This document shows positions 563-64,000 of a stretch of 64,000 bases of DNA, piece by piece; the stretch's first letter is position 1; each line of letters starts with the position of its first letter. Both the position numbers and the translations under genes were made by a program. The notes beneath the pieces are model-generated. The model ran no database searches. It was not told the DNA's origin and saw only the letters and a list, made by a program, of their open reading frames with translations. The DNA is from Amphiscolops sp. MND2022 (taxonomy: Eukaryota): NCBI GenBank assembly GCA_964187785.1, contig OZ076409.1, forward strand, positions 24,306,001 through 24,370,000, in the 5' to 3' direction.

Positions 563-1166
563 TTACTCGTTAGCAGCAGACAACGTGTTTTTTATCGCCT
601 TGCGGGCGCGTTTAGAGGGGCGTTTGGGGCGACTACGGGCAGTAATTTGTGATAAATCATTTTCATTCTTCAAAACAAGCTTCAGATGTTTCAATTCTAT
701 ATCAGGACTCTGGTGCAACGCCTTCAAATTTTGCAAATAATCGAGATCCTTGTGCTTACGCAGCGAGATAAAATCTTTTTCAACGTTCAGTACAAGAATG
801 TTTGTCTCTTCCAATTGCAAGAAAATGTCAGGAGTTCGATTCCGTTGGTAGTACACAAGAGCCCTGATTCTGTGTTGATAGGATTTTAGAACATTTACTA
901 AGTCAATTACTGACAAGGCACGATAAAAGTTGCTTTTATGTTTACAGATGCTGGTATTAATGACGTCGTGCCAAATTATCATTTCTTTTTCGTCTTTGAA
1001 ATCCTTTTCAATCAGGTTTTGTACTATTTTTTTTAGGATTTTTTGCGTGAATGTTTAAACTCAGGCCCGGAATAGAATAAACTTTTTCGTTAAGAGCTTT
1101 TTGATCATCGGGATTTATTGTTTCAATTGCGTGGTGCAAAGAACTTGCGGCCAAAATTCGTACCAT
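563..1166 (-). CDS. SGNH/OSK-like accessory ORF upstream of gag, with one frameshift in an A8 run at ~1027-1034
   Basis: ATG at 1166 gives MVRILAASSLHHAIETINPDDQKALNEKVYSIPGLSLN, which joins the 563-982 ORF if one A is removed. Colinear with ORF 60877-61494 (AASS, PGLSLN, IIWH.V.N.SI.KH, LKALHQSP.IE, SRPKRPS.RARKAIK). Confidence 0.75.
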
Positions 1167-1580: not shown

Positions 1581-2066
1581 ATACGGAATTCGCCCAGTTT
1601 TCAAGGTGACGAGTCACTTTCAGGAGTCACTAGCCAACCTCTGGTGTGTACGGATTCTCCTCGTGCGGGGTTCCAGCAATCTTCGTCGTCGAATATGATA
1701 TGCAAGAGAAGGAACAGCGATCCTCCAGAAATATGAGCTAAGAAAAATCGGTAAATTTGGAATACCGGACAATTTCAAATATTTGCTTCCGCCAAGGCCC
1801 ACTTCCTGCCCAGGGGAATTGCGTCTTCTATTGACCTCTCAGCTTGAGTAGTCCTCTTGTTAACAGAAGAATGAGAAGATGAAGGCTCTGCGCTCACACA
1901 ACTTGCCACTGTTTCCGTGTTTTCTGATTTTGTGGTCCATGAAACGTCTCTGGTGTAGCGCTGCTGTTATGTTTCAGCTTCGATCACATCATCCACAAAA
2001 GATCTCACAGTGTATGGCTGGGTTATTGGAAAAAGGGAAACGAATGCAACAATTTTCAAGATCGAG

Positions 2067-2083
2067 CCTCTCTATGGCCATCA
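2067..2083 (-). promoter_or_regulatory. Primer-binding site of element 1 (TGATGGCCATAGAGAGG; TGG mutated to TGA)
   Basis: Directly follows the LTR end ...TTTTACA. Matches the element 7 PBS at 16 of 17 positions. Confidence 0.75.
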
Positions 2084-2363
2084 TGTAAAAGTCTAAGGTT
2101 TCTAGACTTTGGTTTTTGAAAAGAGAGAGAGAGAGACCAATAATGTATTAAAGGCCAAGTGTTCGGTCACAAAATGGAGGCAAAAATGAATATGTAAAAC
2201 GTTCAGAATAATGCGTTTGGCAGACAAAAGAACAATCATGTTTACAAACAATTACAAACAATAGTTAGCAAGACCTTTTATGCAGTGTTTCGAGGTTATT
2301 TGAAATATAAGTTTGCAAAAATTGGAGATATTTTGGACATTTCAAATATTTTTCCCAAATATT

Positions 2364-2436
2364 TGCCGGTCCCGGGAATCGAACCTCCGATCTTATGATT
2401 GGAAAGCTACGATGCTACCGCTACTCTAAATTGTCT
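2364..2436 (-). ncRNA. tRNA-like Pol III module (A and B boxes) inside the element 1 LTR; not a functional tRNA
   Basis: Minus strand TAGAGTAGCGG...TAGCTTTCCAATCATAAGATCGGAGGTTCGATTCCCGG. The B box is perfect; acceptor and anticodon stems do not pair. Confidence 0.65.
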
Positions 2437-3527
2437 TATTATTTGTTTTAACTTCGTCATATTGTATTGCACTGCAATACTATGACTCCCTGAATTCGAA
2501 TACTTTGTTTTGTCCTTGCATTCCTGACAAGCATATTAAAGAATGATAGGGTGACCGGGAGTGCGAATAATTACATTGTGATGGTAAACAATTGTATTGC
2601 TTGTTTTGCACATTTATTTATTTAGACTCTTGATAAGACTCTTACCAAGTTTACTGGCTAAAAATTGAAGAGATTTGTGTGAAGCAAGAGTAACTGAGTG
2701 CTTATCAAGCTTTCAATAATGAACGAGAACATGTAAGAATATGCAAGATTTTGACAAGAGTATCAAGATATTTTGCACTGTAGAGATAATACAAAAGGAA
2801 TATGCCCCCCAGAAGCATAATCCAATTTTTGGACACGTTCGTCGCAAATCTGCATGATTTTATGGTACATAATCATATGCCGAGTGTGCGTCTGCAAAAT
2901 CTCAGTAAGTGATTGATCAAAGGAGATTTTCAAGTCAGCAGAAGTTTCAAAACATGTAGAGTAGAAGACGCCCGCTATGTACCGGGATAATTTCCGCCTT
3001 CAATTGGCTGACAATAGACACTTGATCGAAAAATTATCTCCTCCTTGGTAAAACGCATTTCACTTCGAATTTAACGTCACAGTTCGAATAAAGCGCAATT
3101 GTTTTAAATCTCTGCTTTCTCTGTAGTAAAACACAATAAACTTGCAGGAAAAACGTCAAAAGTTCGGATGTAGCGTGCTGGGACAAATGGGAGCGCTTGT
3201 TTCCAAACATCTGTCTCCTCCTTAGGAAAACGCAATATTAAATATCATAGAAGTAAAAAGTGGAGCTTTGGCAAAATTTGGGAAAAAACGCAACACAGAT
3301 TATATTTTTCCTCCCCTTGCACAAAAAATTATGAAGGCGGAAGTTAATAATGAACACGAACTATGAAGTTTCAATCTTAGTGTTTGTAGAGAGATTTGAT
3401 TCTTTGAAAATAGTAAGATTGAGTTCTGTTGCCTTCGTATTGAAAGGTACATACACTAGGGTACCAAAAAGCTAAAGACACTCAATTTCGCTATCGAAAA
3501 AATTCAAATCGCAGTAACTTTTTCCAG

Positions 3528-11218: not shown

Positions 11219-11220
11219 AA

Positions 11221-26789: not shown

Positions 26790-26850
26790 TAGAAAAAGAG
26801 TGCCTATGAAGAGTATTTGAAAGAGACTAACTTCAACCATTTGTGAAGAT

Positions 26851-34728: not shown

Positions 34729-34862
34729 AAATCGGCTACTGAGTTCACTGAGTAGTCAGTTTCTAAGAATTGTACTGTGTTGGATCTTCCCACGTCGTTA
34801 GTTTTTGGGAATCTTTGCTCGTAAGACTGAGTAGGGGTGTTGGGTCTTTCGTTTCTGTTTTG

Positions 34863-37207: not shown

Positions 37208-39814
37208 TGTCGCACGCATGGATAGATTTTACTATTTACTATTTCCTTTTTGTTCCCTTTTCCTTTCAAGGGGCTGTTCAGTTGTTATCAGTATTAGTCA
37301 GTTCAGCTTATGTAGCGTAGTGCAAATTACTTTCAGGTGGCTATTCTATTATTGATTGTAAATGAGTAAGAAAGTCTCAAAGCTTACTCCGTGCAATACT
37401 AGAAAGGAAGTGCCTTGCGTGTACGTGCGAACAAAGGGAGTTGCGTGAATAAGTGCAAGGCAGTGTATGTAAATGAGTTATCTGAAAAACGGAAAAGTAT
37501 AGAAAGGAAAAATGTTGAATTATATCACGTGAACGGACAATAGTATTAAGTAAAATTTTCTAGGCATCTCAGTGTCTATTCCATCTTTAGTTAAATCCAG
37601 CAGCGAAATAACTATTTACTTTACTTCAGCAGTAGATTGGAAGGATTTGTTTCGACTTCGAGCAAAGTAGCTTCATAAAATACATCAGAAACCATTAATA
37701 TATATCAGAAAATTCGTAATAAAACCTACAGACTAAATTGTGAGCTTCTACACTTTCAAAATGAAATTGCTTTATGATTAGCTCCAAATGAGAAATGGTT
37801 TTAGCCGGTGATAATTTAAACCAGCGAGTTTTAAGTTTTTAAAGTCACTGCTCTGTTGGGTAGAGAGACAGCATTAGGACTTTGTATAAGACACAAACTT
37901 ACTGGGTAGATAAGGTGAAATGATTTTGTAAGTACTAGTGTAACGCCAACCATTTATTTAGTATTTTTCTAAGATATAAGTTGAACCACCACTGAGTAGA
38001 ATCAGTGGAACTTATCTAAGATATATTTTAAACAACCACTGAGTAGAATCAGTGGAATTTTTCTAAGATATTATTTAAACAACCACCGAGTAGAATCAAT
38101 GGACTTTTTCTAAGATATGTTTTAAACGACCACTGAGTAGAATCAGTGGAATTTTTCTAAGATATAATTAATTCAGCCACTGGGTAGAATCAGTGGAATT
38201 TTTCTAAGATATAATTTAAACAACCACTGAGTAGAATCAGTGGAATTTATCTAAGATATAATTTGAACAACCACTGAGTAGAATCAGTGGAATTTTTTTG
38301 AGATATATTTTAAACAATCACTGATTAGAATCAGTGAAATTTTTCTAAGATATAATTTAAACAACCACTGAGTAGAATCAGTGGAACTTTTCTAAGATAT
38401 AATTTAAACAACCACTGAGTAGGATCAATGGAATTTTTCTAAGATATATTTTAAACGACCACTGAGTAGAATCATTGGAATTTTTCTAAGATATAATTTA
38501 AACAGCCACTGAGTAGAATCAGTAGAATTTTTGTAAAATATATTATAAACAACCACTGAGTAGAATCAGTGGAATTTTTCTAAGATATAATTTAAACAAC
38601 CACTGAGTAGAATCAGTGGAATTTTTTTAGATAAATTTTAAACAACCACTGAGTAGAATCAGTGAAAGTTTTCTAAGATATAATTTAAACAACCACTGTG
38701 TAGAATCAGTGGACTTTTTCTAAGATATAATTTAAACAACCACTGAGTAGAATCAGTGGAATTTTTCTAAAATATAATTTAAACAACCACTGAGTAGAAT
38801 CAGTGGAATTTTTCTAAGATATAATTTAAACAACCACTGAGTAGAATCAGTGGAATTTTTCTAAGATATAATTTAAACAACCACTGAGTAGAATCAGTGG
38901 AATTTTTCTAAGATATAATTTAAACAATCACTGAGTAGAATCAGTTGAGTTTTTCTAAGATATATTTTAAACAACCACTGAGTAGAATCAGTGAAATTTT
39001 ACTAAGATAGAATTTAGTTAGAAAGGGGAGAATCAGAAATCTCCACAAAAAGAAACTAAGTTGTTTTTTCACTCACCAGACCAGGGACTGTTCTCGGATT
39101 GAGGTGAATTCTCTAAGATAGAAAATTCAAGAAAGACGGATGTGACTTCGCAAATTTGAGAGCCAAATCAAAAAAGGGGATGAAAGTAAGAGAAAGTAAG
39201 AGAGAAAGTAATTTAGCGGAGAGAAGATAAGTAGAGTTGGAGCAAGTTGAAGGGAAGAGAAGTAGAAGTGAGAAAGGGAGAGAGCTTTTTAGGTGTTGAA
39301 GCTCTGCCGGTTGGAGGGAAGAATGAAGCTCCAGCTTGTGCACGCCGTATAAAAACAGTTCAGCACTTCTGCCGAAGTGCTTCATTGGCCTGTTTTTCGT
39401 TCAGCCAATCAGAGCTTACCATTAGATTTCGGATCTCCGCGGTAATTAATAGATTTTTTTCGTTTGTGCAATCCCGCGGTAGAAGAAACTTCTTTTATCC
39501 CATTATTCTGCGGCCTTTTTATGAGTTTCAGCTGCCGCCCTACTTTATTAGTTATTTATCTTCAGCTTCCTCCTTCTCCAGGTTAGTTCAATTTCCTGCT
39601 TTGTTTATGCAGGTGTTTTTTAATCATAAACTACTCTGTAGCTCAAAGGAAATTGATTAGCTTTGTATTTTTGCAGGGGAATTTTTGATTAGAAACGGCT
39701 CTGAAGCCCTGGGATGATAGTTGAGCTTTTTATTAAATCAGGTGTTTTTTGTTGAGCACTATATTGTTGCAGTTGCATTTGTATTATTGATTAAGCGTTA
39801 GTCATAACGCGACA
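37208..39814 (-). repeat. 5' LTR of element 4 (2607 bp)
   Basis: Followed on minus, after 3 nt, by the PBS at 37188-37204. Confidence 0.95.
37960..39010. repeat. 47-bp tandem array with palindromic core, 22 copies
   Basis: Same unit as 20900-21760. Confidence 0.95.
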
Positions 39815-42467
39815 GGGCGAAAATCGGGAACTAACTATTTAACCTGAGAAATGCTATTTCAGTTGACTGCAAAGACTTGTCAGTCTACATTACCCGCAAT
39901 TCAGCCGGAGAAATCACGGACCACCTGGTGATGTTCAAAAAAGCAATGACCCGAAGTATCGGAGAGGGATGACCTTCATCCAAAACAAAAAACCGTCAAA
40001 TACGGTAAGTAACAATACAAACTCCAACTACCCGTTTACTTTCTTCGAGAAAGCTCATACAAAACGATCACTCGGTAGTAAATTCGATAACAAACCACAA
40101 ATTGTAGACTCTGGTACCAAACACACCATTATCATTGACGAAAACAAAAATACACACAGGATACAAATATCTATTCCAATATCTTTTCAGAACACAGCCA
40201 CACCAGCGAGAATCAGTTCAAGATTCTCGACCACAGCCGACCAGCCATCCTGCTCAAAGACGAAAAGCACTGGCACAGCAACTTGAGGTTACCGCCGAAA
40301 AGAACCGCTGCTAGTAGACAACACAGAGAGCAGCGCTGATTGGCTCAAAAGAAAAGAGCAACCGAGGAACGAGAAGAGACAATTTACCAGCCCTGACAAA
40401 TCAGCCAGTAAACGCTGGAACTCGACCTGAGTATGGTTTCAGACGACGACGATTTCCAATGTTACAATAATAGTGAAGGAAAGCCAGTGCACACCAACTT
40501 AGACGACGAACTGCCGAAGGATACAAATCTAACCCCAGAAACAGGCATAAAAACAAGAGAACCAATTGACGAATCCCACCTAACGGTGAGAGAATCAAAA
40601 AGAATACCCCATGCTAAACAAACCGCTTTAGGTGGTATCCCATACTGTACAAAAAACAATAAAAAGAAAACAAGTATTAATTGTATTTCACAGGAAAAGC
40701 AGACCAACCAGCCGGACCAACCGCAGACAAACAGTAATGAGGAACTGGACAACTGAAATATACGGTCAAATACGGAGAGCCTACAAACTAACTGTATGAT
40801 ACGGACATACAAACCCAAACAACCATACGTAGCCAACTTTACCCGGAGGGGGGCAATGTGGAATGCCAAGGTCAAACTGCCACATTTCATAACCTGAAAT
40901 ACTTCAGACAGGGAGTTGTGTAAATACTATTTACAAACAAACTCTAATTGATTTCTGTCGCATTTATGTTAATGATTTGTTACCATATCATTCGATTGAT
41001 AGAATACATTAAAGATCAGTTGAGAAAGATACATACTCCCCAATGTTGTTTTTAACCAACAATTAAGAGATCTTAACAGTATACAGCTAATTTTGTGATC
41101 CTACTATATTACGAACAAAAGTATTACACTTCATTTTGTAAAGTTATGTCATTTCATGCAGTTATCCACTTTAAAGAAGCTATATTACGCGTAAATAAGT
41201 GCTTTTTTGTAGGTTTTTACTAACAGCTAATTGGTAATCTGCAATTGTTCGAGTTTTTACCTAATCAATATTCGGCGAGTCAGTTGTCGACAAGTTTTGC
41301 ACTTACCGTTATTCTGAGTTAACTTAGAATTATCCCACATAAGTTAGTAGGTTGTTTGAGATTTACATGTAGCATTCATTCTAACTGGTATCGAAAAAAA
41401 TTCCCAGAAATTGTTACCTCAAGGATAAACAGTTTCAAGTCAACACCTAATCGAAAATTATGTCAGTAATTGCCTCCGGCAGTGTTGAGATAAATTTGCC
41501 AATGCAAAAAACAACAACCATTGTTGTTAAAACGTGCAGTATTTGCAGTTGATTGCAAAAATGGTTATTCACCACTAGTTTCACATCTTGTTACTTGGTG
41601 TGCAACCATTAGCTACTAATTTGACATTGAGATTCAAAATTGATCGACTGGGACGTCTCCCAGACAAAAACCCCAATTGGGAATTTTCGTTAAAACCATG
41701 AAATATTGAAGTAAATTCAACAAAATCTTGTGAATAGTATTGGTTAACTGTAAGAGTGGAAATATTTGTTTATGTTGGTAATATGATAGCTCATTAAGCA
41801 TAGGTCAATTTCCTATCAACTATCTTCGAATATGTTTTTTCTCTGGTATCATGAAAAACAGTTCCCAAAATTACAGAAAAGATTGCAACGAGCTGCAGCC
41901 CAGTACTGTCAAAAAAACAAGCTACCCTAGTCGAGATTGCTTGAATTTTAACATGCTGCAAGGAAAGATGCAGGCTAATACAAAACATGAAATTTCAGGG
42001 AGTTTTCATAGAAAAATTTTGTAGGATTACAATGCAGTTTCCACTATTTCAATTGAACCTGAAAACAATATCACTTCTTAACCGTCGCGATTAGTTTGTT
42101 TTCAAGCTTAAGTTTTTGAAAAAAAGTACCTTTTGTAATCACCGTTAGTCAAATAGCACGCTGAGTATGACGGTACCTCGAAACTTACAATGTGACCGAA
42201 GTTCATTTGCATTAAAATTGTGGCAAAATTAATGTGGTCTCAGCTGCTTTCAAAATTAGAAGTGCTTCTTCTAAGCTTGGTTTGGTCTCTGTTTTTGGTC
42301 TTGTCGCAATTTCGGAATCTTTTAATGATAACCGAAATGACCCCCGAAACTGCGCAAAGTACTGAAAACATTTCGAGAAAAGAAATAAAAAGATTTTATG
42401 CATTTTTCTACTGTTTCGATATTTTTCGTGGGTTGTAATATACAAAAAACAATAAAGAGCAACCAGC

Positions 42468-44158: not shown

Positions 44159-45018
44159 ACAGAGTTAAACGAGAAATCAAACAGTTCTCTCATACGCTTT
44201 TACTACAAGCTATTTTGAACAGATGGCTTATGGATTTAAAAAGCCTTCAAATAACACCAAAGAGAAAATTTTCACTATTACAATGACTTTGTAGTACTTT
44301 TTGCATGTTTTGAAGGGTTAGTTGGAACAAAAAGCTATCGAAGGGTTTTTTTCACTAGAATAGCTTCAAACAGATGTATAACTCTTTCAAGTTTGATCAT
44401 TCAAGCATTTTCCCAATTTTCTGAACGTATTCAAAGGTATGAACATATACAGCACACAGAAACAAAAAATTTATAATTTTGATCATTTTGATCAGAAATT
44501 ATGACCAGAAAGTTAGAAATGAAAATTACAGTTTTTCCTCCAAAAAAGTCTACACAAAAGCCCATAAAAGACAAAACATTTTCACCAATTTTAATCTATT
44601 AGAGCAATTTCTGAGCAATAAAATATCTTTTTGTTGTTATAGATTAAAAATGTATTCTAAAAGTAACAGTTCGAAGAGAGAAAAATGTTTCTTTAGCAGT
44701 TTATTTGAAAATGGGAAAGCAGAAGCTGTCAAATGAAGAGCCAAAATGTCCACATTTTTCATGTTTATACCGAGTGTTCAGAGCTGTGCTTTTGTAGGTA
44801 CTCATATATAACAAAACACTTGGGACTAAACAATTTTTAGTCGGTGCTTCGTGAAGTGAAACGCGATAATACTAGCGACTCTTTTTTAATCCACATAAAC
44901 TGACAAAAACAGTTCTACAAAGTTCTACTGAATTTAGGGTCTCAAATTGGACTATTTGGCCCAGGGAACTGAACTATGAAAGTTGCACCTTTTTTTCAGC
45001 AACAACATTCAACATACA

Positions 45019-45417
45019 AAACCGGGCGAGACTAAAGAGTCCCCCTTTCGTTTTTTTGGCATTATAAGACTTTTTTCATGAGAATAATTTTCAATGTTCC
45101 CAAAGGATCCCCCTCAATTTTTTTTGATATTTTGGAACAGAATGGGTGTTGAAAAACCACAAAGTTCCCCCTCTTACGTTTTTCGGCACTATGAGACAGT
45201 TCAAAATTTCATTTTTAGTTTTTCGACAATTTTTTAATGTTCTCTCTTCATTTTTTTGATATTTTGCAGCAGAATGGATGTTCGCCTTTTAGCACGTTAG
45301 TTCGGTCTAACTTTCAGGCCTTTAGGGTAGTGTAGAAGAGAACACTTGACACTTTCAAATCCTTCTGCTACTTTTGTGCCTACGAAATGGCGCCGATTTA
45401 TGACGTTTCCGGTTTTT
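45019..45417 (+). repeat. Interspersed repeat family copy (as 12518-13003)
   Basis: aaaccgggcgagactaaag start, cccccttt/ttttcggcact units and atggcgccgatt end. Confidence 0.6.
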
Positions 45418-45599
45418 TACACGGTACTTGCCACAAGTAAAAATCTATTTATTGGATTACTTTTTTTTCATTTTTCATTTCGAAAAATTTTATAAATAAA
45501 CGTAAGAGTGATGAAACACTGTTCCTTGAAACACTGTTTCATTACAGTCACGTGAACAAAACATTACTTAGAAGTCGAACTTGTAAAAAACAAACTTGA

Positions 45600-46182
45600 T
45601 TTCTTTGTGCATGTTTTTTCGGCTTTGTGAGACTTTTTTCGCAAATTTTTAAATGTCTCCAAAGTGTCCCCTTCCATTTTTTGATTTTTAGCAACAAAAT
45701 GGATGTTCAAAAATTCCCAAAGGGTCCCTTTTTTTACAATTTTCCGCATTGTGAGATTCTTCCATTTTCTGTCTTAAAAGTTTCTCAGGTTTTCTCAGCA
45801 CGCTTCATACGAATTTTGAAATTTCAAGACCGGCGTTTTTTTCCATGCGACTTTTTTCCAATTTGTTTTTATTGAAACCCTCTCTCAATTTGTATTAGAA
45901 ACGGAATTTTGCGAGCATAGAAGACTCCTTAGGGTTTTCGGCACCATGCGACTAACCGGAACCGGAGACTTCATAAAAAATCTTTCGAGATTTTTAAAGT
46001 TTTTTGAGATGCTTTGTTGTCTCCAGCTGCGGAAAAAGTGGTTTTCGAGTCTTATGCGTATCCCTTGAGGTATATTTTGGCACTGTAAAACTGTTAGAAT
46101 GTTAACAAGAGTGCATATGTAAAAAACTTTACTTTTTTGAACCTTGAGCGGGGCGCCGATTTGGGCCGTTCTCGGCTTGTTT
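45600..46182 (+). repeat. Interspersed repeat family copy
   Basis: aaagggtccct units and end ttgagcggggcgccgatttgggccgttctcggcttgtt. Confidence 0.55.
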
Positions 46183-50349: not shown

Positions 50350-50947
50350 AAACAAACCGGGACCGGTCCAAGTCGGCCGGCGCCATATCTAAGGCTCGAA
50401 AATAGCAAAAAAACTTCAAAGCGTCAAAGTATTCTTTTCTACAGTACCCGAAAAACACAGAAAATGCACCAATTGGCGCGCCAGGGGGCGTTTTGAGATT
50501 TTTCATCCATTGTTGCGAAACATCAAAAAATTGAATGGGGAAAACTTTGGGTAGAAAAAAATTCGAAAAAAGTCTCACAATGCCGAAAAAAACTGAAAAA
50601 GGGACCCTTTGGGATTTTTAAACATCCATTCTGTCGCAAAACTCCAAAAACAATTGAAGGGGGAACCCTTTGGGGAATTGTTTTTTGAAAAAAAAGTCTC
50701 GCAATTCCGAAAAAAAACTAAAAAGGGACACTTTAGTCTCGTCCGGTATTGTATGTTTTGCGGAAAAAAGAAAAAACATTTTTGGTTCTGTTCCTTGGGC
50801 CAACAGCTACAATTTGGCTTCTTCTTAAAATTTTGTATAACTTTTGATAGAACTATTTTGGTCACTTAAGGTGTATCTGACGAAAAACACTGACGAAAAG
50901 GCATGACTTTAGCCGACTCTTTTCTTAAGAAGAGCCTCGACTAAAAA
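50350..50947 (-). repeat. Interspersed repeat family copy, inverted, inside the host gene intron
   Basis: Reverse complement of the ends and internal units of 12518-13003. Confidence 0.65.
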
Positions 50948-51872: not shown

Positions 51873-53664
51873 AAAAGGGGTATGCATAAAAAAATTTATA
51901 AACAGTAATTGCTATTTGAAATTTTTACAAATTTACAAAGGTTTCTTTAATCAAAAGTTGCTCTAGAAAACGATTGATTGGTTTCAATTTTTAACAGCTT
52001 TATATTATCTTGAATCAGTTTTCTGTATCATAAAAACGATTAGAACAATTTGCAATTGATAACTCTTCACATGTAAAAAAATCGCAAGGTTCTTATTTTA
52101 GGTTTTTTTTAAAAAAATGTTTCATCTCTACAATTTTTTAATATCACTGTTGACAAAATGGATTGCAATCTTTTGAACCCTGATAAATCTACTGTTTTAC
52201 ACCATTCAGTAACCCAACTATTGCGTGCCCCTTAACCTAAAGATACGAAGCCAGTACAACGTATGTAGTGACGTCATTAAGGACGTAATTATGATGTAAA
52301 GTCATTCTCGGCACAGAATGAACCAATCGCATCTCAATTAGCTGCAGCCAATGGCGACAGTCGACAATTCTCGGGTCCTCGCATGAAATGCAAGCGTTCG
52401 AAATGTCGAAATTATAGTTTTTATTTTTATCCAAATTTTTAAACAAAGAAATAAAAATGTAATCAGAACTGTATCCGACCCCCACAAATAGAAATTGAAG
52501 TTATTGCACAACATTTGAGTTTTCACATATGTAGTGTGTTTCTTTCAATTACACTGCTGGAATTATCTTGAGAATTTGCTCGTGACACACTTTTGAACAA
52601 GTTTGAAAAGATAGGAGTACACGTGTTGACAAACCACGTGCTTCCATGCATGCTACATACATGGTCCATGGGAATTCTATGCACGGTCCATGTGAACCCC
52701 ATTGCACATGGTCAATATACATGGCCGTGCTGTTTTTCTTTGTATGGAATCGCAAGGTCCCTGCATGTTCTATTAGCTCAGGGAAAAGGTTCACAGAACC
52801 ATCAGAGATACGAATGACATAGAAGCAGTTCTCCTATCAAATGAATCCAGTCGTGGAGACCTTGGCAGTGTCTTCAAAGTTTTTTAAACTTCGGCCTGAT
52901 CATAAGGTTCCCAACTTGAGCAGTCCCTTATTGTTTCTCTCCATCAATTCCTTCTATTTAGTTGGGAAAACAAAACATTAGATTTGTAACATCTCAAATC
53001 ACCAGATTAAAACCCAAATGCATTAGGAAAATAATTTAAACTCATTGACATTAGATTTGAAATCATCGAAATTTGATCAAAAATTTCATTTTAGATCATA
53101 TTAATGACTGGTTTTCATTCAACAAATTATGAATAAACGTATCCAAATTCGAATCTCTGAGTGTCCGATCTGCAAAAGTGAACCATTTGGCGTTGCTGAA
53201 CGAAACCAATACTGACAAAAACAAATGCGAGTGTTCGGAACTACACATAGATAGTAAAACGACATTCAAAGACATACTGCGCATTTACTGAAAGAAATTT
53301 TTGTCGGTTAATTCAATTGTCGGTTAGGAGTTAGGCCTATGTTTTCCACTTACTCTCTTCTTTTGGTTTACTTTGCTAAATCGAATATAACGTCTAGATT
53401 CTTTGTACATGGAGTGAAATAACTATAGATTTAAAGGCTTTCTCTATCGTTTGAGAGTCAAAGAATCAATTGAATATGGCTATATACGGTCGCAAAAATG
53501 AATCAAACAATGTATATAGAAAACGACACAACTGACAAAAGATCAAATAATATTAGTCAACAAAAATAACAACAGTGAACATAAATAGCAAGGCCTTTTC
53601 TCAAGGTTATTTTACTGAAATGAAGAAAATATTCAGATCTTATTTCCGAAATAGGAAATATTTT

Positions 53665-53736
53665 ACCTGTCCGGGAATCGAACCCAAGACCTTATGGTTC
53701 GAAAGCTAGCACACTAACCATTCGGCCATAGCGCCT
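53665..53736 (-). ncRNA. tRNA-like Pol III module in the 3' LTR of element 7
   Basis: TGGCCGAATGG (A box)...GGTTCGATTCC (B box) at tRNA spacing; TCG at the anticodon position, but the stems do not pair. Confidence 0.7.
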
Positions 53737-53921
53737 TGAAAAGGAGCGGATAATATTTGCTTTTATTCTTATCGCTGAATTAATTGCTTGCCAACATCCT
53801 CCGGGCCCAAGACGATGTGGAGAAACGAATCAATCAAACAAAAACTTTTTTTACATGTTACATGAAATATAATAATGATAATAATGTAAATAATGTACGG
53901 TGAAATGAAGCAAAAACAAAA

Positions 53922-56900
53922 TTATATAGATTGTTCGGGAATGGGGAGAACGGGGGCGAGCTTGACAACTGGGCGAACAAGGTTTCCGGTAGATGTCTTG
54001 ACTTCGGCTGAACGGGCGATGGCATCGGTGCCGTAATTTAACTTCACTACGCGACCAAGTGGGTAGTGTCCTCTTGGTGCGGTCGGTTCGACTAACCAGA
54101 CGAGATCTCCGGTTTTCAGGTCTCTGTCTGACGACTTGGACCATTTGGAGCGACGGTTGAGGTTTGGAACGTACTCCTTGAGCCAACGATTCCAAATTGC
54201 GTCTGAGTACGCTTGGGCTCGGACGTATCGCTTTCGATGGTCTATTTCAGGGCGGAAGTGTGATGGCAATGTTGAACTTGCAGTTCCAAGGAGAAAGTGG
54301 TTTGGTGTAAGAGCGTCGAGATCAGTAGCTTCAGGGCTCACGGGAGTGATTGGGCGAGCATTGAGACATTGTTCTACAAGCAGAACGTGGTCGTCAAGAT
54401 TTCGTCTGTCAAACGGCGGTTTCCTAAAACGGCATAAAAAACGTGCTTGAAGCTACGAACTAGGCGTTCCCAAACACCTCCGTGATGGGGAGCACTTGGT
54501 GGGTTAAACTTCCACGTTATGCCTTTCTTTGCAAGTGTTTCTCCGAGGACTTGCTGGTTCCAGTTGTTGATGTTGGACATAAGTTCTTTCTCGCTAGCAA
54601 CGAAGTTTGTTCCATTGTCGGACCAGATTACTGATGGGATTCCACGACGGGCACAAAATCTTTCTATTCCCATCACACAGCTACTGGTGTCCATGCTAGG
54701 AACTACTTCAAAGTGGAAAGCGCGAGTGGTGAGACATGTGAAAAGGAAGCCCCAACGTTTTTCAGTGGACCGCCTCACGGTTACAAAGAAGGGTCCGAAA
54801 TAGTCTACACCTGTGTTCGAGAAAGGTGGTTCTTTGAAAGCAAGTCTTTCTCGCGGGAGGTCCGCCATCACTGGAGTAACGGTTTCAGCCCTTCGCTTGC
54901 GGCATGTAACACACCTCGAAACTATTGTTCTCAAAGTTGCTCGCAGTTTTACCACCGCCAGGCGTTGCTGTATCAAAGCGCGGAGGTAGTCAACACCTTG
55001 ATGACAATGTTGAACGTGCGTGTGTTCTAACAAGAGTCGAACCAAGGGATGTCGGGCGTCCAACAGAATGGGATGTTTCACATCGAAGGTTGCAACGTCA
55101 AGGTTTTTTGTTCGACCAGAAGCTCTTAGGAGCCCGTTGGGTCCTATGAAGGGAGAAAATTGGGCAAGTTTGGAAATTTTACTGAGCGGGGTTGACTTCA
55201 GCAAACTACTTCTTTCAACGTGGAATGATTCCGCCTGACTCAGGTAGAAAAGACGTTGTTCGGCATTTTCAAGTTCGGCCGGATCCCTAATGGCACCTGT
55301 GATAGTCCTGTAGTCTCTGTTCTTTAATAAGAGCCGCAAAATATAGGCTGCAATGCGCAGGAGTTTCTCGTATGAGCAATACTTCTGCCACTCGAAAGTT
55401 CTTGCAATTGCAACTTGGGTTTCGCACAGCATTGAAGAAGACTTAGGAACTAGTTCGTCAATCGGATCCGGTTTTACTTGCTTCAGTTTCTGTCGAAAGT
55501 CTTCGGAAGGCTTGAAGGGCCATTCATCTGTATTCAGGAATTCGGGGCCATTTAGCCAACTACTTTGCAGAAGAGTCTTGGCAGACAAACCTCTAGTTCC
55601 GGCGTCAGCAGGGTTGTCGGCGGATTGCACGTGGTACCACTCATCTGTAGTTGTCAGTTCGAGTATCTCCGCAACACGGTTTGCTACGAACACCGGCTGT
55701 TTCTCAAGAGAATGTAGCCACTGAAGGACCGTAGTACTGTCAGTCCACATAAATGTTCTTTCAATCTGTAAAGTGAGCGCGCGTTGCACTTCGTTTCTCA
55801 ATCTTGCGGCGAGTAACGCGGCTTGCAGTTCGAGTTTGGGATTGGTCAGTGCTTTCATTGGCGCAACTCGTGCTTTGCCAAACACAAAGGCTAATTCAGT
55901 AGAACAACCATTTCCAGTGTTGACTTTCCCTCTGAGGAAAGCTACGGCACTAAAGAAATCTTGCGAACTGTCGCCAAACATATGTAACTCCAAACACTCG
56001 ACATTTTGCTGGAAGTAACTTCTTGGGATCACGAGTTCACCAAGAGTTCCCAATTCAGAACTCCAGTCCAGAAACTTGGTTACAATGTCCTCCGGGAGGA
56101 GGTCATCCCATTTATGGCCGCTCAGTCTCCATATGTCTTTCAGCAGAAGTCGGGCTTTCACGGTGTACGGTGCTACGAGCCCAATAGGGTCGTACACGGC
56201 GGAGACGAGGCTGAGAACAACTCGTTGAGTAACAGTTCGGTTTGTGTCGGGAGTGGTGCCTCGGCTAACAACAAGTGTATCCGAGACGTGGTTCCATTTG
56301 AGGCCAAGTACGTGCGATGATTCCTCAGTTGTCGGTAACTGTTTACCATCGTTGGGTTGGCACTCAGAGTTTGGTTCGATGTGTTGCAAGATGTTTTGGT
56401 CGTTAGACACAAATTTCGTTAAGTTGAATCCACCCAGCGAAAGCAATTTCACTGAGTCTTTGGCTTTCTGGGTAGCTTCGTCGGCAGTGGGACTAGACTC
56501 GAGGTAGTTGTCCATGTAGAAATTCGTCTGCACGCTTTGAGCGGCTTTCGGAAATTTGTCGGCGTTGTCGGTTGCGGTCTTCTTCAAAGCGTAATTTGCG
56601 CAAGTCGGAGAGTCCTTCGACCAAAGATCTGTCTTACGTACTGAAAAACAGCAACTTCAGTTGATGGATCCTCCCGCCACAAAAAACGAATGGACGGTTG
56701 GTCTTTCGGTATAACTCCCACTTGTAAGAACATGCCTTCAATGTCGGCGGACACGGCCTTGGGGAATTGACGGAATCTGAAGAGGATATGGATCAAACTT
56801 TGCAGTAGATCCGGACCGGTTAGAAGGGCGTTGTTCAAAGAGTGTCCATGGAACTTTGCAGCACCATTGAGAACTCTTCTCACTTTGCCGGGTTTGTGCG

Positions 56901-59900
56901 GGTGTACTACGGGGTGATGTGGCAAGTACCACTCACGACAGTTATCGGTACGGAAACATTCGGACTTATCGACTCGAACGATATACCCTTTTTCGAAGTC
57001 CTCTCTGATTGTCTTGCTGTAGCTCTCTTTCAGTTGAGGATATTTTCCGAGGCGGCGTTCTAACGACTTAAGTTGTACAAGAGCCGAGAAGTAGTTGTTC
57101 GGCAACGTACTTTCTTCGTCGGCCTACAACGTTCCAACTTGGTAACGGCATCCATCGTTGAATGTCGTCTCTTCGAGGATTTTCATCGCTCGCGCATCGG
57201 CTGCGGAGCGAGAGTCAACTTGTTTGTAGGCACCATATGACTCGATGTCGTACCAGCTGCGAAGTTGTTCGGCAAGAATAGAATCGTTCTCTGAGCCAGT
57301 GACAGCTTTGAAACAAGTCGAGAAAAGACCCGTGGTGGAAGGAAGCGGACCACTCAGTACCCAACCCAACGGTGAACGGACGGCTATTGGAGTATTCGGA
57401 CGGTCAGCTTCGAAGTAATCCAATGGGCGGATACAGTGGAAGACATCCTGACCAAGGATCATCTCAACGTCTGAATAGCTGTACTTGCTCAGGGGGATCG
57501 GTTCTAGATGCGGGTAAGTCGTTTTCAGTTTGTCAACGTCGGTAATGTCGTTTCCAACTTTCAAATCATCTCGGACGTAAGGAGTGACAGGAAAAGATGA
57601 ACAAGAGCCACCCGAATGAACGGGTGTCAACTTAAGCTCAACTGTTTCCGTGTCAATCAGTTGTTGGGAGTTTATCCCATGCACGGTTAACTTGGTTGCT
57701 GAGCCCTTAACTTGTAGTTTGTCGGCTAATCTTCTCGAGATCCATGAATGACTACAAGCTGAGTCACATAGAGCAAGAATTTTAGCGGAGCTCGACGGCG
57801 ATGTCAATTCGACTTCTGTTATCTGCAACAAGCCTTTGACGTCGGTTACGGAAGGCATGCCGGAGCTTTCGCTGCCAGTTTGTCTCTGACTGACCTTTGT
57901 CGTTTTACTTTGAGAAATTTTCGCATCGCCGAGACTTTTCTGTGGGAAAACTCTGTCGGACCCGTGAAGTAAGGTGTTATGAGAGCTGCTACAGCCGTCT
58001 CTTGTGCATTTTCTTGGTTGCGGGCATTGCCGGAATGAATGTCCTTCGTTTAGACAAGAGAAGCAAAGTTCGCTCTCGGCGGCTAGCTTGGTTCTCTCTG
58101 TCGGAGTTTTTTGGCGGAACAATCTACAACGCCAAAGCGGGTGAGTGTCCTTGCATGCTACACATTGTTTCTCACTTTTAACCTTGGTAATAGCGTTCCT
58201 TTGGTTACTGGTGGTCGCCGCAAAAACTTTGGTTCCTGTTTTTGTCTTGGTTACGGTAGTGACAGGAACTTCTTCGGATCTTGGTTTACTGGAGGCGACT
58301 TTCATTCTTTCGTGTGCCTCTGCCTTCTCCTTTAGCCAATCGTTAAAGTGAATCAAAGTCGGTCGATCCAGATTCCGTTTGACAGTGTTCATTGACCACG
58401 CTTCCTTCAAATTTGGTGGAAGCTTTTGAACCGCTCGGCCCAGGAGAGAAGCACTCGACAGATCCTGCAGGTAGTTCAAAGATCGAAAAACCCCAACCAG
58501 TGAGGAAACTGTGGCAGAATAGCTGATGATACTGTCGCTATTGTGCATCTTTACTGGCGGGTAGTTGGCGAGTTTGTCGAGGTAGGCACTAACAACAGTC
58601 TGAGGTTGCCCAAACTTTCGTTCCAACGTTTTCAACGCGTCTTTGTACATAGTACCACAATATGCAAACTCGGCTATAGCAGTTTTTGCCTTACCGGACA
58701 CCAATGTCTTCAAGTAGGTCAGTTTCACGTCATCGGTAAGGGGCGCTGAATCGATGGCACTCTTGAACTGGCCAAACTACTCGTGCCATTGAAGTGGATC
58801 TCCACTGTACTGGGCCAGTTTCCATTCAGGGAGGTGATCCCTTTTCGAGGACGCTAACAGTTGTGCAAGATCTTGGACAGTGAAACTGGTAGTAGCAGGT
58901 TGCGGTACATTGACGAATGGAGGAGTTGCCAATGGTGTTACTGTTGAAGGAACGGCCGGGAAAGTAGTCGGTACTGGTGCGCTGCTCGGTGCGGGCACAG
59001 TTGCAAGAGACGTCGAGTTAATATAGTATACTGTTCCTCCAGCGGTGACTGGGATAACAGGCGAAGATGTTGAGGCGACACTAGTAGCCGGTAAAACTGT
59101 CGGAAACACAGTGGCGGTCGAAGTTACGGGGTTTACTTTCACGGGCGGGTTACTTGGTCCTGTCGGAAACGTCCAGGCTGATAAATTTGGAAGAACATGA
59201 CTTGCGGGAACGGTGACTGTTGAAATCGGAATTGACGTGGCGGTTGCCAAAGGAGCTGAGGCTGAAACAGTTACTGATGGAGCATTTGTCCCCTGAAGCG
59301 TTGTGGTCGACTGGGGGACCTGGACGTGGCCAGTGTTTGGTAGGTAAACTATTGAACCTGGTCCTGTAGCTGCAGGCATATTGTTAGTCGTCGAAGCGGT
59401 TGGAAGAGCTACAGGAGTCACTACTGGGAAGCTAGGTGTTGGCGTTGTTGTAGGAGCTCCTCTGTGGACTGAACTTTGTGCTGCGGTAGTGACGATAACG
59501 ACGTTCGGTTCCAAAATAACGGTGTTTGTGGGATCACTTGCAGTAGCAACAGGTGAATTGTTAACCCACTCGCTGACTCTGACAGTATCGTCAGCTTTAG
59601 TCGAAGCCGCTAGTTGTGAAACTGTGTCTAGAAACTCCGATTGAGAGTCTGACAAGTCCTCAGTCAGTTCAAGCTCGGTGAGTGTTGCTTCAGCTAGTTT
59701 CTTTCGATTTTCTTCTTCTAACTGTTCAACTCGAAGTGCTTGTTCTTTCTTAAGTCTGTCGGTCCTCAGTCTAAGTAGTTCTTGTTCTTCCTGTAGACGT
59801 TCAAGTTCCAGTTCCTGCTGTTGCTTTGCAATTCTAAGGGCGGCTTCGTTTTGCCTTTCTATCTCCTCCTTACGTTGCTTGGCAATCAACAAGTCCCTTT

Positions 59901-60330
59901 GTCGTTGACTGGAGGCTCGCGATTGTCTGGATGTCCTTGTGGTAGACGTTTTGCTTGGTTGCTTGCTCTTGGTGACAGTCGTTGACGATTGAGATGCTCC
60001 ATCGACTAGTGGACATTGATCGATGTAATCGCGAGCCTTCTTTAAAATCTCATCGTTTCGAGTGGTCACTTCATTCAACCAAGTTTCCAAATCTTGTTTA
60101 ACAATTGATGGGTCTTCTGTTTTGCCAGAGAGTTCGAAAAGTTGTTCATGTTTAGCAAACAGTTTCGTCATCGCTTCGTCGCAGGAAGTAACAAATCTTT
60201 CGACGCGGACACGTCTATCTTTGTTCTGCACGGCATCTTGAACTTTTTCTTGAAACCTTTGTAACTCGGTCTCAGCTTTGGCACGACTTTCGAAAAGTTT
60301 TCTAACTTTGTCTTGTCTGGTGTCGGTCAT
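53922..60330 (-). pseudogene. BEL/Pao gag-pol with 2 stops (58777, 57124) and 2 frameshifts (~56620, ~54375)
   Basis: LPEWKLAQYSGDPLQW; three knuckles; LCDSACS; YMDN instead of YMDD; MFGDSS; GVDYFGP; SDNGTNF. Confidence 0.95.
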
Positions 60331-60420
60331 CTTTGTCGTGATCTTTTGCAAGAGAATGAATCAAGGTAGCAAGGAAAGTGTTAAATCAAATAGATCGAGG
60401 AGCAACTTCTTCGACAGCGT

Positions 60421-60856
60421 CAACCAAGCAATTAAGCTTAGACACAGCTGAACGGAGAAATTTTGGGTTAACGGTAACGGTGTGTTTTGGATGATGGGAG
60501 CTGTATCTCACGATAAGCGCAACGGTAGAGTAGTTTTGCGATTTTTCGTTTTTTAAAAGTAATTACAAGTTACAGGAGGAAGTTACATGGGACGAGTCGA
60601 TGATTTAAAAACACGCTCTTCCCGAAAGGACAATGGTTCGTCCAATATTAAGCGCCCAAGGGGCGGAAGAAGGCCGAAAGATCTTCAACCAGACAATTAA
60701 GTCTGGACACTGTCCAAACGGCAGGAAGAAAGACGGGGAGTAGACTTCTGAGTATCAACCGGACAATAAAGTCCGGACACAACTCAAGAAGACGGGTAAA
60801 CTACTGTAGAAACTTCAACCGGACAATGAAGTCCGGACACCGTAACTACAGTACAG
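60421..60856 (-). repeat. Four copies of the conserved intercistronic stem-loop
   Basis: Copies at 60421, 60686, 60756 and 60816, on + caa-CCNNNC-aatNaa-GNNNNG-acac. Confidence 0.8.
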
Positions 60857-60876
60857 TAAAGAGGGATGGAGGGGGT

Positions 60877-61494
60877 CTAGGACGAAGAAGCGACGGCCGC
60901 TGCACTCTTGATTGCCTTTCGGGCGCGCTCACTAGGCCGCTTGGGGCGGCTTTTGTCGGTGATAGCGTCAAGCTCGCTCTCTTTGCTCAAAATAAAGTCA
61001 ATATGCTTTATTTCAATCTCGGGGCTCTGGTGTAACGCCTTGAGTTTTTTAAGAAAGTCAGGATCTTTCTGTTTTCTCGTGGAAATGAAATCATCAGCGA
61101 TACTGAACACTTCAATATTGGTTGTTTTTTCAATTTCCTTCAATTTTGGTAAAATATGCGGGGTACGGAATCGGTGGCAATACACTAGAGCCCGGAGTTT
61201 GTTTTCGAAAGATTTCAAAATTTCCATCAATTGGAGAACGGTCAATGCTCGGTAATTATTGCTCTCATGTTTAGAAATACTGTTATTCAGCACAACATGC
61301 CAAATAATGATGTCAGAATTTTCGGCAAGATCTTTAGAGAGCAAACTTTGCACAATTTTTCGGGGATTTTTTGTGTTAGGGTTAAGGCTCAGGCCCGGGA
61401 GTGAGAAAATTTTCTCTTCATATGTTTTTCGGTTTTCGGGGTTTAGGGTGTCAAGAGCATGATCAACGGAACTTGCCGCTACAATGTATACCAT
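60877..61494 (-). CDS. SGNH/OSK-like accessory ORF, 205 aa, intact
   Basis: Homologous to 563-1166; degenerate SGNH blocks (IVAASS, LPGLS, IIIWH..LNN, ALHQS) and a basic C-terminal tail. Confidence 0.8.
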   Translation of the reverse strand: MVYIVAASSVDHALDTLNPENRKTYEEKIFSLPGLSLNPNTKNPRKIVQSLLSKDLAENSDIIIWHVVLNNSISKHESNNYRALTVLQLMEILKSFENKLRALVYCHRFRTPHILPKLKEIEKTTNIEVFSIADDFISTRKQKDPDFLKKLKALHQSPEIEIKHIDFILSKESELDAITDKSRPKRPSERARKAIKSAAAVASSS

Positions 61495-62316
61495 TAGATT
61501 TCAATTTTCTCAATGAGATTACGGAAAAAGTTTGAAAAATCCAATCCGAAAGGTTTTTTTTCGATACTTTTATGAACAGATGCAAACAATCAAATTCCAC
61601 TCAGAAGGGAAATTTTTTACTCTCGAATTAATTTTTATTGATGATGAGAACGTTATGTTATACCAATGATTTTTTTTTCAAAGGCCTTGCTATGAAAGTA
61701 GCACTAGTTCTCGTTTTAATCACAGTTTTGAAAGTTTCTATAATTCAGCTCTTTGAACATAACCGGTTTTTTGTAGTAGTCGTGTTTGAGGGGCGAAGAT
61801 CGTGCTTTGCGTGCTCCTTCAGGTTATGGGGCTCTTCAAATTATTTCGGGTCAGGCAGTCGATAAATCAGCTTTCTCAAATTCTTTATATCCCTCTGTGG
61901 TCGTCATGTTGCATCCCCTTCGTCAATTGCCTGAGTTGCCAGGCACCCCTGCAAGTGGTAGTTTGGAAGACTGGGGTGCGCTTTCTGTCAGTTGAGTGAA
62001 ATTGGGGGCACTCCGATTGTGACTTGGGGGTTACAAAACGAATTCCAATGACGTTAATAAGTGAAGTAAATACTAGTCATCATTCTGAAGGAGAGCGAAA
62101 TACAATTCCAGGGGTCGAGTTTTCAGTCCGTACTCTTGGTTGATGTCCGAGAGAACCTCTTGCTGAGTGAGGGCGAAATACTCTGGCGGTGAAGTGTGTT
62201 TCCTTTTGGCATAAATTATCAATTTAGACAAATCACAATTCGAAGCGTCTCCTCCACTATGGTGCACGTGTTGTTCACAGATTACTAATCAACTACTAGG
62301 TGAACCAAAAAAACTG

Positions 62317-62333
62317 CCTCTCTATGGCCACCA
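62317..62333 (-). promoter_or_regulatory. Primer-binding site of element 7 (probably tRNA-Ile type)
   Basis: TGG-T-GGCCATA-GAGAG-G fits the CCA + discriminator + acceptor + T-stem geometry of a tRNA 3' end. Confidence 0.8.
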
Positions 62334-62579
62334 TGAAATAACTATAGATTTAAAGGCTTTCTCTATAGATCGTTTGAGAGTCAAAGAATCAATTGAATAT
62401 GGCTATATACGGTCGCAAAAATGAATCAAACAATGTATATAGAAAACGACACAACTGACAAAAGATCAAATAATATTAGTCAACAAAAATAACAACAGTG
62501 AACATAAATAGCAAGGCCTTTTCTCAAGGTTATTTTACTGAAATGAAGAAAATATTTAGATCTTATTTTCCGAAATTTT

Positions 62580-62650
62580 ACCTGTCCTGGAATCGAACCC
62601 AAGACCTTATGGTTCGAAAGCTAGCACACTAACCATTCGGCCATAGCGCC
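62580..62650 (-). ncRNA. tRNA-like Pol III module in the 5' LTR of element 7
   Basis: Copy of 53665-53736. Confidence 0.7.
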
Positions 62651-64000
62651 TTGAAAAGGAGCGGATAATATTTGCTTTTAATCTTATCGCTGAATTAATT
62701 GCTTGCCAACATGGAGGAGAACAAATTATCGTTGTACAAAAACAAATCTGAAACTGAATAAACAGGCTCAAACACGCATTTCGAGATCTATCTACGAAAA
62801 AAATGACAGCCTTCAAGTGATCTCAAAAGATATTGTTAACCCTAACTTGACCCATGGTACAATTCGGCACATTTAGTTTCTGCATTCCTTTCTGCAAAAG
62901 CACCAGCTGATTGTATGGTAAGGAAAACTCTTGAATAAGATTTTCAGACAATATTGTATAGAATTCCGCGCAATTTCACGGAATATTGACATGATGTCTT
63001 CGATATCAAGAAAACGGGACCAAAAAATCAAAACAAAATTGAGCGCAGCTCTCCGGTTTTCCAGTTTTCGTTTGTGGCCTTTTTATCCCACTGGTATCAA
63101 CATTGGGTCAAAGCGGCCCCAGCATGTTTTGAAACATGCTGAAAAGCAATCAGAGACACGACGCGTGCAAAGTAAGTTTTGGCGCAAAGTCCGGAGCCAG
63201 TGCGGCGCTAGCGGGCCCCAGCCCAGCGGTTTATAAATTGATAAATTGATCTGGAAGCCCTGATTCTCCTCTTTCGAACGCTCTATAAATCGTTTGTTGG
63301 ACTTCATCCAGGATAAGTTGATGAAACATTTTAGATAAATAAAAAACACTTCTCCTCTAGTGCAAAACCAGCAAACTGACAACGCATATTATTACGACCG
63401 CAAGCGTCGAAAGCTGGGTTCACTGCCTTCTACGTATCACGGCACTCAAATTAAATCAAAAATGGTTGCAAATACCGTCAGAAACGCATACAACTGGTGG
63501 GTTCAGTTGCCAATGTTGATTGTTTTTTTTTAAGTTTTTACACCAAATGTGGTAACTAATGACTTTCAATTAAAATAACTACCTCTTCAACATCATAGGG
63601 AACGTTTCCCAAATCACCTATATTTGGTCTGGATGTTTGGAACGTTTTGGAAAAAGATCGGGAAGCAATGGAATAAAATTCAAAATCACAAGTACTGTGA
63701 ACTAGAATCACCAGGACAATAAACTAATGAAACACTACGTATCAGATCGGAAAAGACCGTGATATTAGAGTCGAACACATGGAACGAAATCATAAGCATT
63801 ACGATGAAGATTGACCAAGATATTTATCCCAAAGCTCTTCAAAAAAAATGATAAGAAAACGAAAGCAAAGCGTTGAACTCTAAAACCACTGGAATAGATG
63901 TAATGACACTAGGAGTATGACATATCCTGTAAAAATATTATCTATGTTCATGTTAAATGAAAACTGAAACTACATTAGTTGTCATACAAGAAATTGACGT

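Follow-up and report, generated by a model that had tools for sequence, protein, structure and literature searches.

Can a coding LTR retrotransposon hold on to a tRNA-derived RNA polymerase III (Pol III) promoter in its LTRs, and to what use? The question is raised by the window (the whole 64-kb stretch of DNA analysed here), animal DNA dense in LTR retrotransposons, in which an earlier note had described an A/B-box module in both LTRs of one BEL/Pao element (element 7) and in an LTR of another (element 1). The tRNA-derived LTRs characterised so far belong to tiny non-coding elements, where the promoter has been explained as the source of the RNA. As this explanation fails in a 9-kb coding element, lasting conservation of the module would point to a second use of a Pol III promoter, for which chromatin protection, help to Pol II, and a short RNA are the candidates. 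The module would also shed light on the origin of TRIMp3 elements. If it is a passive relic, it is an ordinary capture of the kind already noted in Repbase LTRs.

The BEL/Pao host element and its partial relative

Element 7 is a BEL/Pao LTR retrotransposon, as seen from its protein domains, TG...CA LTRs, 5-bp target site duplication (TSD), tRNA primer binding site (PBS), as well as a polypurine tract (PPT). Its features are as follows.

53415..62711, minus strand: element 7, full-length BEL/Pao LTR retrotransposon, 9,297 bp, recognised by LTR pair, TSD and Pfam domains
53410..53414, plus strand: TSD TGGAG, left copy
62712..62716, plus strand: TSD TGGAG, right copy
53415..53796, minus strand: 3′ LTR, TG...CA, 382 nt
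62334..62711, minus strand: 5′ LTR, TG...CA, 378 nt
62316..62333, minus strand: PBS, TGGTGGCCATAGAGAGGC
53797..53808, minus strand: likely PPT, a short stretch rich in purines ahead of the 3′ LTR, judged from the sequence
60877..61494, minus strand: ORF0, an accessory ORF of 205 aa upstream of gag
53922..60360, minus strand: gag-pol, in five pieces

The two LTRs differ by just 3 substitutions in 373 columns and two small indels, which makes the insertion a recent one. Element 7 was described earlier as a coding element, and it does hold gag-pol and ORF0, but the gag-pol frame is broken by in-frame stops at 58777-58779 and 57124-57126 and by two frame changes. Pfam finds the domains Peptidase_A17, DUF1759, DUF5641, and Integrase_H2C2, arranged in gag-pol order. 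The RT region, which is split by the breaks, has no Pfam match of its own; it shares 79% identity with the unbroken relative P0358 (2,130 aa, 71-79% identical to element 7, 156 member sequences) and 53% with the intact BEL ORF of the window. Among relatives of the pol protein that carry a name, identity does not exceed 44%. The first 9 nt of the PBS fit the 3′-end of tRNA-Ile(AAT), as judged by the Aplysia tRNA-Ile end (PMC10886601, supplement).

Element 1, a distant relative of element 7, is truncated by the left edge of the window, such that its 5′ LTR, PBS, and first ORF are visible and the partner LTR lies outside.

2084..2530, minus strand: element 1 5′ LTR, with the 3′-end set by the PBS and an approximate 5′-end
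2066..2083, minus strand: PBS, as that of element 7 but with TGA for TGG
563..1166, minus strand: ORF0 homologue with one frame change near 1030

With gag-pol outside the window, the earlier description of element 1 as a coding BEL/Pao element is deduced from its relatedness to element 7, with which it shares the PBS, a homologous LTR, and ORF0.

Ancestry and inheritance of the tRNA-derived module

The module is found in all three visible LTRs, where the earlier note had placed it.

53664..53735, minus strand: tRNA-derived module, element 7 3′ LTR, with tRNA position 1 at 53735
53718..53728, minus strand: A box TGGCCGAATGG, element 7 3′ LTR, matching the consensus in full
53674..53684, minus strand: B box GGTTCGATTCC, element 7 3′ LTR
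62579..62650, minus strand: tRNA-derived module, element 7 5′ LTR, with tRNA position 1 at 62650
62643-62633, minus strand: A box, element 7 5′ LTR
62599-62589, minus strand: B box, element 7 5′ LTR
2364..2435, minus strand: tRNA-derived module, element 1 5′ LTR, with tRNA position 1 at 2435
2428-2418, minus strand: A box TAGAGTAGCGG, element 1 5′ LTR
2385-2375, minus strand: B box, element 1 5′ LTR, full consensus

All copies read along the minus strand, in the sense direction of elements 1 and 7, and in element 7 the module begins at LTR base 62, upholding the claim that it sits in sense orientation near the 5′-end of the LTR. The A box of element 1 (TAGAG...CGG) misses the CY of TRGCY and has one non-consensus position. 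Three strict B boxes are present in the whole window, one in each of these LTRs, while 50 simulations averaged 0.1 and never gave more than 1. With one mismatch allowed there are four matches, where 0.89 are expected and four are reached in 0 of 100 shuffles. A profile built from the three copies finds no fourth copy in the 64-kb window (next E-value 0.64), and it finds none in the intact BEL/Pao element at 3528-12166 or in the gypsy element at 20145-39815. The shared motif quoted earlier is also present, with 29 of 35 ungapped identities between element 1 and element 7.

A weight matrix was built from 27 of 54 phage tRNAs, namely those with a 5-nt variable loop; the other 27 had a different geometry or no clear anchor. 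The three module copies are the top of the window with scores of 31.9, 30.5, and 27.6 (next 10.6), on a matrix that slightly favours the module since the three phage loci behind it had been picked for one module-matching tRNA each. Positions 27-48, scored without the B box, still place element 7 within the top 1.6e-5 of window positions and element 1 within the top 7e-5. The register is exactly that of a tRNA, with no indels over positions 27-65 and the full tRNA length. Of the 14 phage records found by blastn with the element 1 module, 8 were matched in tRNA genes; with the element 7 module it was 18 of the best 30 of 53 records, and in both cases all E-values were at least 0.2. The isotypes of these matches are mixed. 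Among the phage tRNAs compared with the module, Glu and Lys matched best, and the module may resemble tRNA-Gly(TCC).

The cloverleaf has not survived. In the 3′ LTR of element 7, pairs remain at 2/7 positions of the acceptor stem, 2/4 of the D stem, 1/5 of the anticodon stem, and 5/5 of the T stem (4/5 in the 5′ LTR), and in element 1 the corresponding counts are 4/7, 3/4, 1/5, and 2/5. The CCA end is missing and the anticodon position reads TCG in one version and TCC in the other. ARAGORN predicts 0 tRNA genes in the window, and the Rfam tRNA model has no match in the window at E-values up to 5 or in either LTR at E-values up to 10. The module is shown to be tRNA-derived, with a decayed cloverleaf and A and B boxes that can still be read.

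Full tRNA length and register are what would be expected of a functional tRNA or of a primer that the element makes for its own reverse transcription, as C. elegans Cer7 reportedly does. A functional tRNA gene is contradicted by the ARAGORN and Rfam negatives and the broken cloverleaf, to which the lost CCA and the TCG/TCC difference at the anticodon add. As for a self-encoded primer, the PBS has no complementarity to the 3′-end of the module, and the 3′-end of the primer occurs nowhere in the window in sense, being present only at the two PBSs, in antisense. We regard both roles as almost certainly wrong.

Whether the two elements inherited the module from one capture was addressed by comparing them with tRNA pairs. 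Over positions 27-48, elements 1 and 7 share 18 of 22 nucleotides, beyond anything seen among 351 phage tRNA pairs (mean 9.3, maximum 16), and this argues for a common origin of the two modules. Over positions 27-65 they share 32 of 39 without a gap (phage maximum 30, 351 pairs). The phage-pair control is compatible with two captures of one host tRNA or SINE. The LTR downstream of the module is homologous between the elements (z 7.8, 0 of 300 shuffles), with a gappy alignment, and only the upstream part is unalignable (z −0.6), so the earlier statement that the two LTRs are otherwise dissimilar was wrong. Within these homologous LTRs the module occupies the matching place. A single capture of tRNA-derived sequence, inherited in the lineage, is well supported by these sequence comparisons. 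It was probably also conserved, since 18 of 22 positions are still shared while the synonymous sites of ORF0 are saturated. The evidence comes from two independent elements; scans with the module, PBS, and protein found no more family LTRs in the viral, prokaryote, and metagenome collections, and the three PBS matches in the viral and prokaryote collections are all by chance.

Conservation, transcription signals and competing readings

The reading that we favour would begin with a BEL/Pao ancestor whose LTR acquired a tRNA-derived sequence, either a SINE2 head or a tRNA retrocopy. Copying of the LTR would then have passed the captured sequence down the lineage, where the tRNA structure decayed and the A and B boxes stayed readable. 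Placed at the head of the LTR, the module would act as a Pol III promoter unit of type 2, with TFIIIC on the boxes and TFIIIB upstream, and its Pol III product would be at most an RNA of 100-120 nt ending at the first T-run. The genomic RNA would come from Pol II and not from Pol III. What the element gains may be the bound complex itself, which could keep chromatin open or form a barrier at both ends of the insertion, aiding the LTR Pol II promoter in withstanding silencing. From the sequence, we judge the chances that the module is such a retained TFIIIC/Pol III unit, making no more than this short RNA and helping the Pol II promoter, to be about evenly balanced.

ORF0 is 55% identical in amino acids between element 1 and element 7 over 155 codons, and its synonymous sites are saturated, with 8 of 28 four-fold sites identical (a fraction of 0.26 is expected at saturation) and a pS of 0.88. 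The leader gives no convincing alignment (z 2.3). Without gaps, no stretch of the LTR aligns better than the module at 32/39; the best 39-mer elsewhere reaches 25, within the 22-25 of the null. The B box is identical at 11 of 11 positions. The A box, with the consensus TRGCNNARYGG, is identical at 5 of 11, yet T8, G10, A14, G18, and G19 are all retained and five of the six differences are tolerated by this consensus. Three of the seven differences in positions 27-65 strike the 5′ T-stem just outside the B box, and thus T-stem pairing has not been kept. Taken together, the module is probably conserved above the neutral background. Of the earlier proposal of a selected Pol III promoter, the tRNA origin, the inheritance, and the above-neutral conservation stand; selection on the boxes themselves and an insulator role are conjectural. 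The stretch between the boxes (18/22) is as conserved as the boxes themselves, which TFIIIC binding does not predict.

The same data could be read as a passive relic, a SINE head or tRNA retrocopy that hitchhikes in an ancestral LTR. The apparent conservation would then come from an LTR ancestor younger than that of ORF0, shared through template switching, together with fewer indels in GC-rich DNA than in the AT-rich remainder. The rest of the LTR is indeed partly conserved too, and the homology of its downstream part means that the LTRs may share a younger ancestor than ORF0 by recombination. The relic reading also gains from the low identity of the A box and from the matches outside the B box, 18/24, which have a P of about 0.1 at a background identity of 0.6. 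Captures of this kind have been seen elsewhere: "not a few" Repbase LTRs contain part of a tRNA (PMC10886601), and a coding Culex gypsy element has a tRNA dimer inserted near its PBS that is lacking in its relatives (PMC3286476). Against a relic, the invariant box positions are all retained while adjoining stem positions change, and the sequence directly upstream of the module is unalignable. The repeats that flank the module are AT-rich and 7-8 nt long, so no TSD-like repeat longer than 8 nt surrounds it, with the caveat that an old TSD would have decayed. No free copy, as a dispersed SINE would leave, lies outside the LTRs within the 64-kb window. We consider a passive relic doubtful, although it is the foremost rival. 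The ORF0 family is large (260 clusters), so that one genome would give LTRs enough for a position-wise test of selection.

The retained-promoter reading makes predictions on transcription, for which the relevant signals in the three LTRs are listed here.

53626..53629, minus strand: first T4 after the module, element 7 3′ LTR; predicted Pol III RNA of about 110 nt
62552-62549, minus strand: first T4 after the module, element 7 5′ LTR; predicted Pol III RNA of about 102 nt
2321-2317, minus strand: first T5 after the module, element 1; predicted Pol III RNA of about 119 nt
53762..53767, minus strand: AATAAA 32 nt upstream of the module, element 7 3′ LTR, noticed post hoc
62682-62677, minus strand: ATTAAA before the module, element 7 5′ LTR
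2468-2463, minus strand: AATACA before the module, element 1

Pol III terminates at runs of four or more T. The sense strand of element 7 contains 44 runs of at least four T and 15 of at least five, and given this termination rule Pol III cannot make the 9.3-kb genomic RNA, so Pol II must; this limit on full-length Pol III transcription is a prediction from the sequence and not a transcript measurement. The T-runs reported earlier at some 40-50 nt downstream of the module are present, at about 27, 35, and 44 nt, but at chance level, as 68% of shuffled downstream LTRs have a T4 within 50 nt. They were dropped as evidence for a terminator, and a T-run frequency no higher than chance is also what a passive relic would show.

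A further possibility is that the RNA is the product under selection, either as a short Pol III non-coding RNA or, within the genomic RNA, as a motif such as a decoy for silencing by tRNA fragments or piRNAs. Selection on RNA sequence would explain the conservation between the boxes, and the element 7 module, taken with its flanking bases, is more stably folded than its shuffles (z −2.2 to −2.9), with a long hairpin possible. A precedent exists in the U3 of simian foamy virus (PMC3993851). However, the bare 72-nt module of element 7 reaches only z −1.3 and element 1 lacks the fold (z −0.8 to −1.5), such that no fold common to both elements was found, and an element 7 hairpin that has no counterpart in element 1 weakens the case for a short RNA. 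The T-run also lies away from the base of the hairpin, at a distance that varies by copy (102, 110, and 119 nt). Selection for an RNA product seems to us unlikely.

A poly(A)-signal-like, AT-rich hexamer stands at −32/−33 in 3/3 LTRs, and neither AATAAA nor ATTAAA occurs downstream of the module in 3/3 LTRs. The switch from AATAAA to ATTAAA is one of the three substitutions between the LTRs of element 7. The hexamer could equally be a poly(A)-like signal or an AT-rich −30 element, that is, a TFIIIB site, and as it fits both a TFIIIB site and a short-R layout, it keeps the short-R interpretation alive. In such a layout, the module would set the start of the genomic RNA, with Pol II initiating at or just before it together with TFIIIC, the hexamer at −32 ending the RNA at the matching point of the 3′ LTR, and a very short R between. 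Cassandra offers a parallel, its RNA starting and ending inside the 5S part with an 18-nt overlap (as summarised in PMC10886601). Nevertheless, the hexamer was noticed after the fact in sequence that is 70% AT, where it may as well be a TFIIIB site, and a conserved AAATAAC block with a GT-rich tract about 120-135 nt past the module start is an alternative 3′-end signal. We hold a start-setting role of the module to be quite improbable.

A broader version, which we rate as distinctly unlikely, would make the module a domesticated tRNA promoter that serves as the core of the LTR: TFIIIC would enable the Pol II start and shield the ends of the element, with poly(A) addition directed from −32 and, again, a very short R. 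If true, element 7 would stand beside Cassandra and Helenus as their coding counterpart transcribed by Pol II, and TRIMs that carry a tRNA might have come from such elements through internal deletion instead of through a SINE landing in a TRIM.

Both LTR types also carry a conserved block, AAATAACCT...AAGG.CTTGCTA followed by a GT-rich tract, at 53612-53580 and 2301-2265 (minus strand). It is possibly a 3′-end signal or a hairpin.

Known systems, the ORF0 family and neighbouring elements

The closest structural likeness is to Helenus (TRIMp3), which has a tRNA-like sequence in both LTRs, in sense, with A and B boxes kept and no functional tRNA (PMC10886601). Its boxes are thus conserved without tRNA structure. 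As in element 7, the tRNA-like part of Helenus is not complementary to the PBS, and PBS, PPT, and TSD are present (PMC10886601). The Helenus boxes, TRGCY...YGG and GGTTC, are found in full in element 7; in element 1 the B box is full and the A box partly so. The differences are of size and kind, as Helenus is non-coding and 311-1,263 bp long, while element 7 is 9,297 bp with ORF0 and gag-pol, and animal Helenus has a 4-bp TSD and gypsy partners, compared to the 5-bp TSD and BEL/Pao affiliation of element 7 (PMC10886601). The Pol III promoter of Helenus is thought to make its full-length RNA, which element 7 with its 44 T-runs cannot do (PMC10886601). Element 7 is therefore not a Helenus, as Pol III cannot make its genomic RNA, and Kojima (2024) has argued that Pol II is the obligatory choice for autonomous elements (PMC10886601). 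The supplement of that paper contains the inter-box motif TAGCTTTC 0 times. Since the screen by Kojima analysed only tRNA-containing LTRs under 1 kb (PMC10886601), parts of tRNAs within LTRs of bigger elements have probably been noticed before and left unstudied.

Cassandra and Ajax likewise have a promoter derived from a Pol III gene fixed in the LTR, probably by SINE capture, and they differ in that this promoter is of the 5S type (A/IE/C) and the elements are non-coding and short enough for Pol III (as summarised in PMC10886601). The closest mechanistic precedent is the set of miRNA units in the foamy virus U3 (Kincaid et al., 2014; PMC3993851), where an A/B-box Pol III unit with a T terminator lies in the LTR of a coding, Pol II-transcribed element. 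The boxes there are non-canonical and hairpin pri-miRNAs were shown by experiment (PMC3993851), whereas here a full-length, decayed tRNA is known from sequence alone and the T-runs are at chance level. A conserved pre-miRNA hairpin at the terminator, as in foamy virus, is not found either, the hairpin being confined to element 7 and apart from the T-run.

In fission yeast, host tRNA genes act as tDNA barriers that need TFIIIC and Pol III (Scott et al., 2007; PMC2040200). By analogy, the A and B boxes of the module could recruit TFIIIC and Pol III and block the spread of heterochromatin; the literature searched held no case of a TFIIIC barrier inside a coding LTR retrotransposon. A tRNA-like insert in a coding LTR retrotransposon has been described in cqgypsy_1 of Culex, and that insert is a tRNA dimer which has CCA ends, sits at the PBS between the copies of a 26-nt duplication and is absent from relatives, hence a one-off that is not inherited (PMC3286476). 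No description of a tRNA-derived module inherited in the LTRs of a coding BEL/Pao element came up in a search that excludes Repbase, most subscription papers, and bioRxiv supplements. Judged by analogy with these systems, a function of the module is plausible, at best as a Pol III unit like that of the foamy virus U3 or as a tDNA barrier.

The ORF0 family adds a second unusual piece. Its members used here are the following.

60877-61494, minus strand, window: ORF0 of element 7
563-1166, minus strand, window: ORF0 homologue of element 1
417-971 of metagenome locus L002: ORF0 family member
1-492 of metagenome locus L007: ORF0 family member

ORF0 has no curated Pfam match. The fold of the family is that of an SGNH/GDSL hydrolase, based on the model of the relative P0048 (pLDDT 96), which matches an SGNH hydrolase with a Foldseek E-value of 2.5e-4 and a Z of 11.6, at an rmsd of 3.1 Å over 143 residues. 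Clustered at 90%, the relatives form 260 clusters; at 50% they have 559 representatives. No paper on a BEL/Pao element with an SGNH esterase was found in the literature searched. A metagenome scan gave seven loci, out of 80 candidates, with ORF0 at 31-41% identity. None of the seven contains the module, but these distant loci make no fair test of it: two run into LINE-type ORFs, L001 starts just 195 nt ahead of a PBS-like site, and the rest have no recognisable LTR. In L002, the ORF0 family member stands ahead of ORF1 of a LINE that has endonuclease and RT, and it probably does so in L007 as well. The lineage may therefore combine two pieces typical of LINEs and SINEs, ORF0 as an esterase-like ORF and the module as a tRNA head. 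That the two share a history of capture is speculation.

The PBS-like site of L001 (196-213) is identical over 18 nt to the PBS of the element at 3528-12166 and is followed by an ORF0 homologue, which suggests that ORF0 occurs with more than one primer type.

The window holds several other elements and repeats.

3528-12166, minus strand: second BEL/Pao element with an unbroken ORF of 2,133 aa, LTRs of about 947 nt that are 99% identical, and TSD TCCAG
20145-39815, minus strand: gypsy-type element with LTRs of about 2.6 kb containing 47-nt tandem arrays, a 4-bp TSD, and a broken gag-pol
24569-26480: env-like ORF of the gypsy element, in two pieces, matching Monjiviricetes_fusion
22815-23849: MATH-domain ORF of the gypsy element
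12708-12903, 44889-45774, 50378-50876: dispersed repeats, 65-80% identical, in both orientations and with internal subrepeats, MITE- or Helitron-like
17025-17461, 18275-18565, 40856-41078: another repeat, in three overlapping pieces at 93-97% identity, with no A/B boxes

The BEL/Pao element at 3528-12166 has neither ORF0 nor the tRNA module, and as its ORF is intact, BEL/Pao elements here do not need a module. The PBS of this element is repeated in tandem, in two perfect and two decayed 25-nt units that are followed, in the leader, by a 24-nt tandem array.
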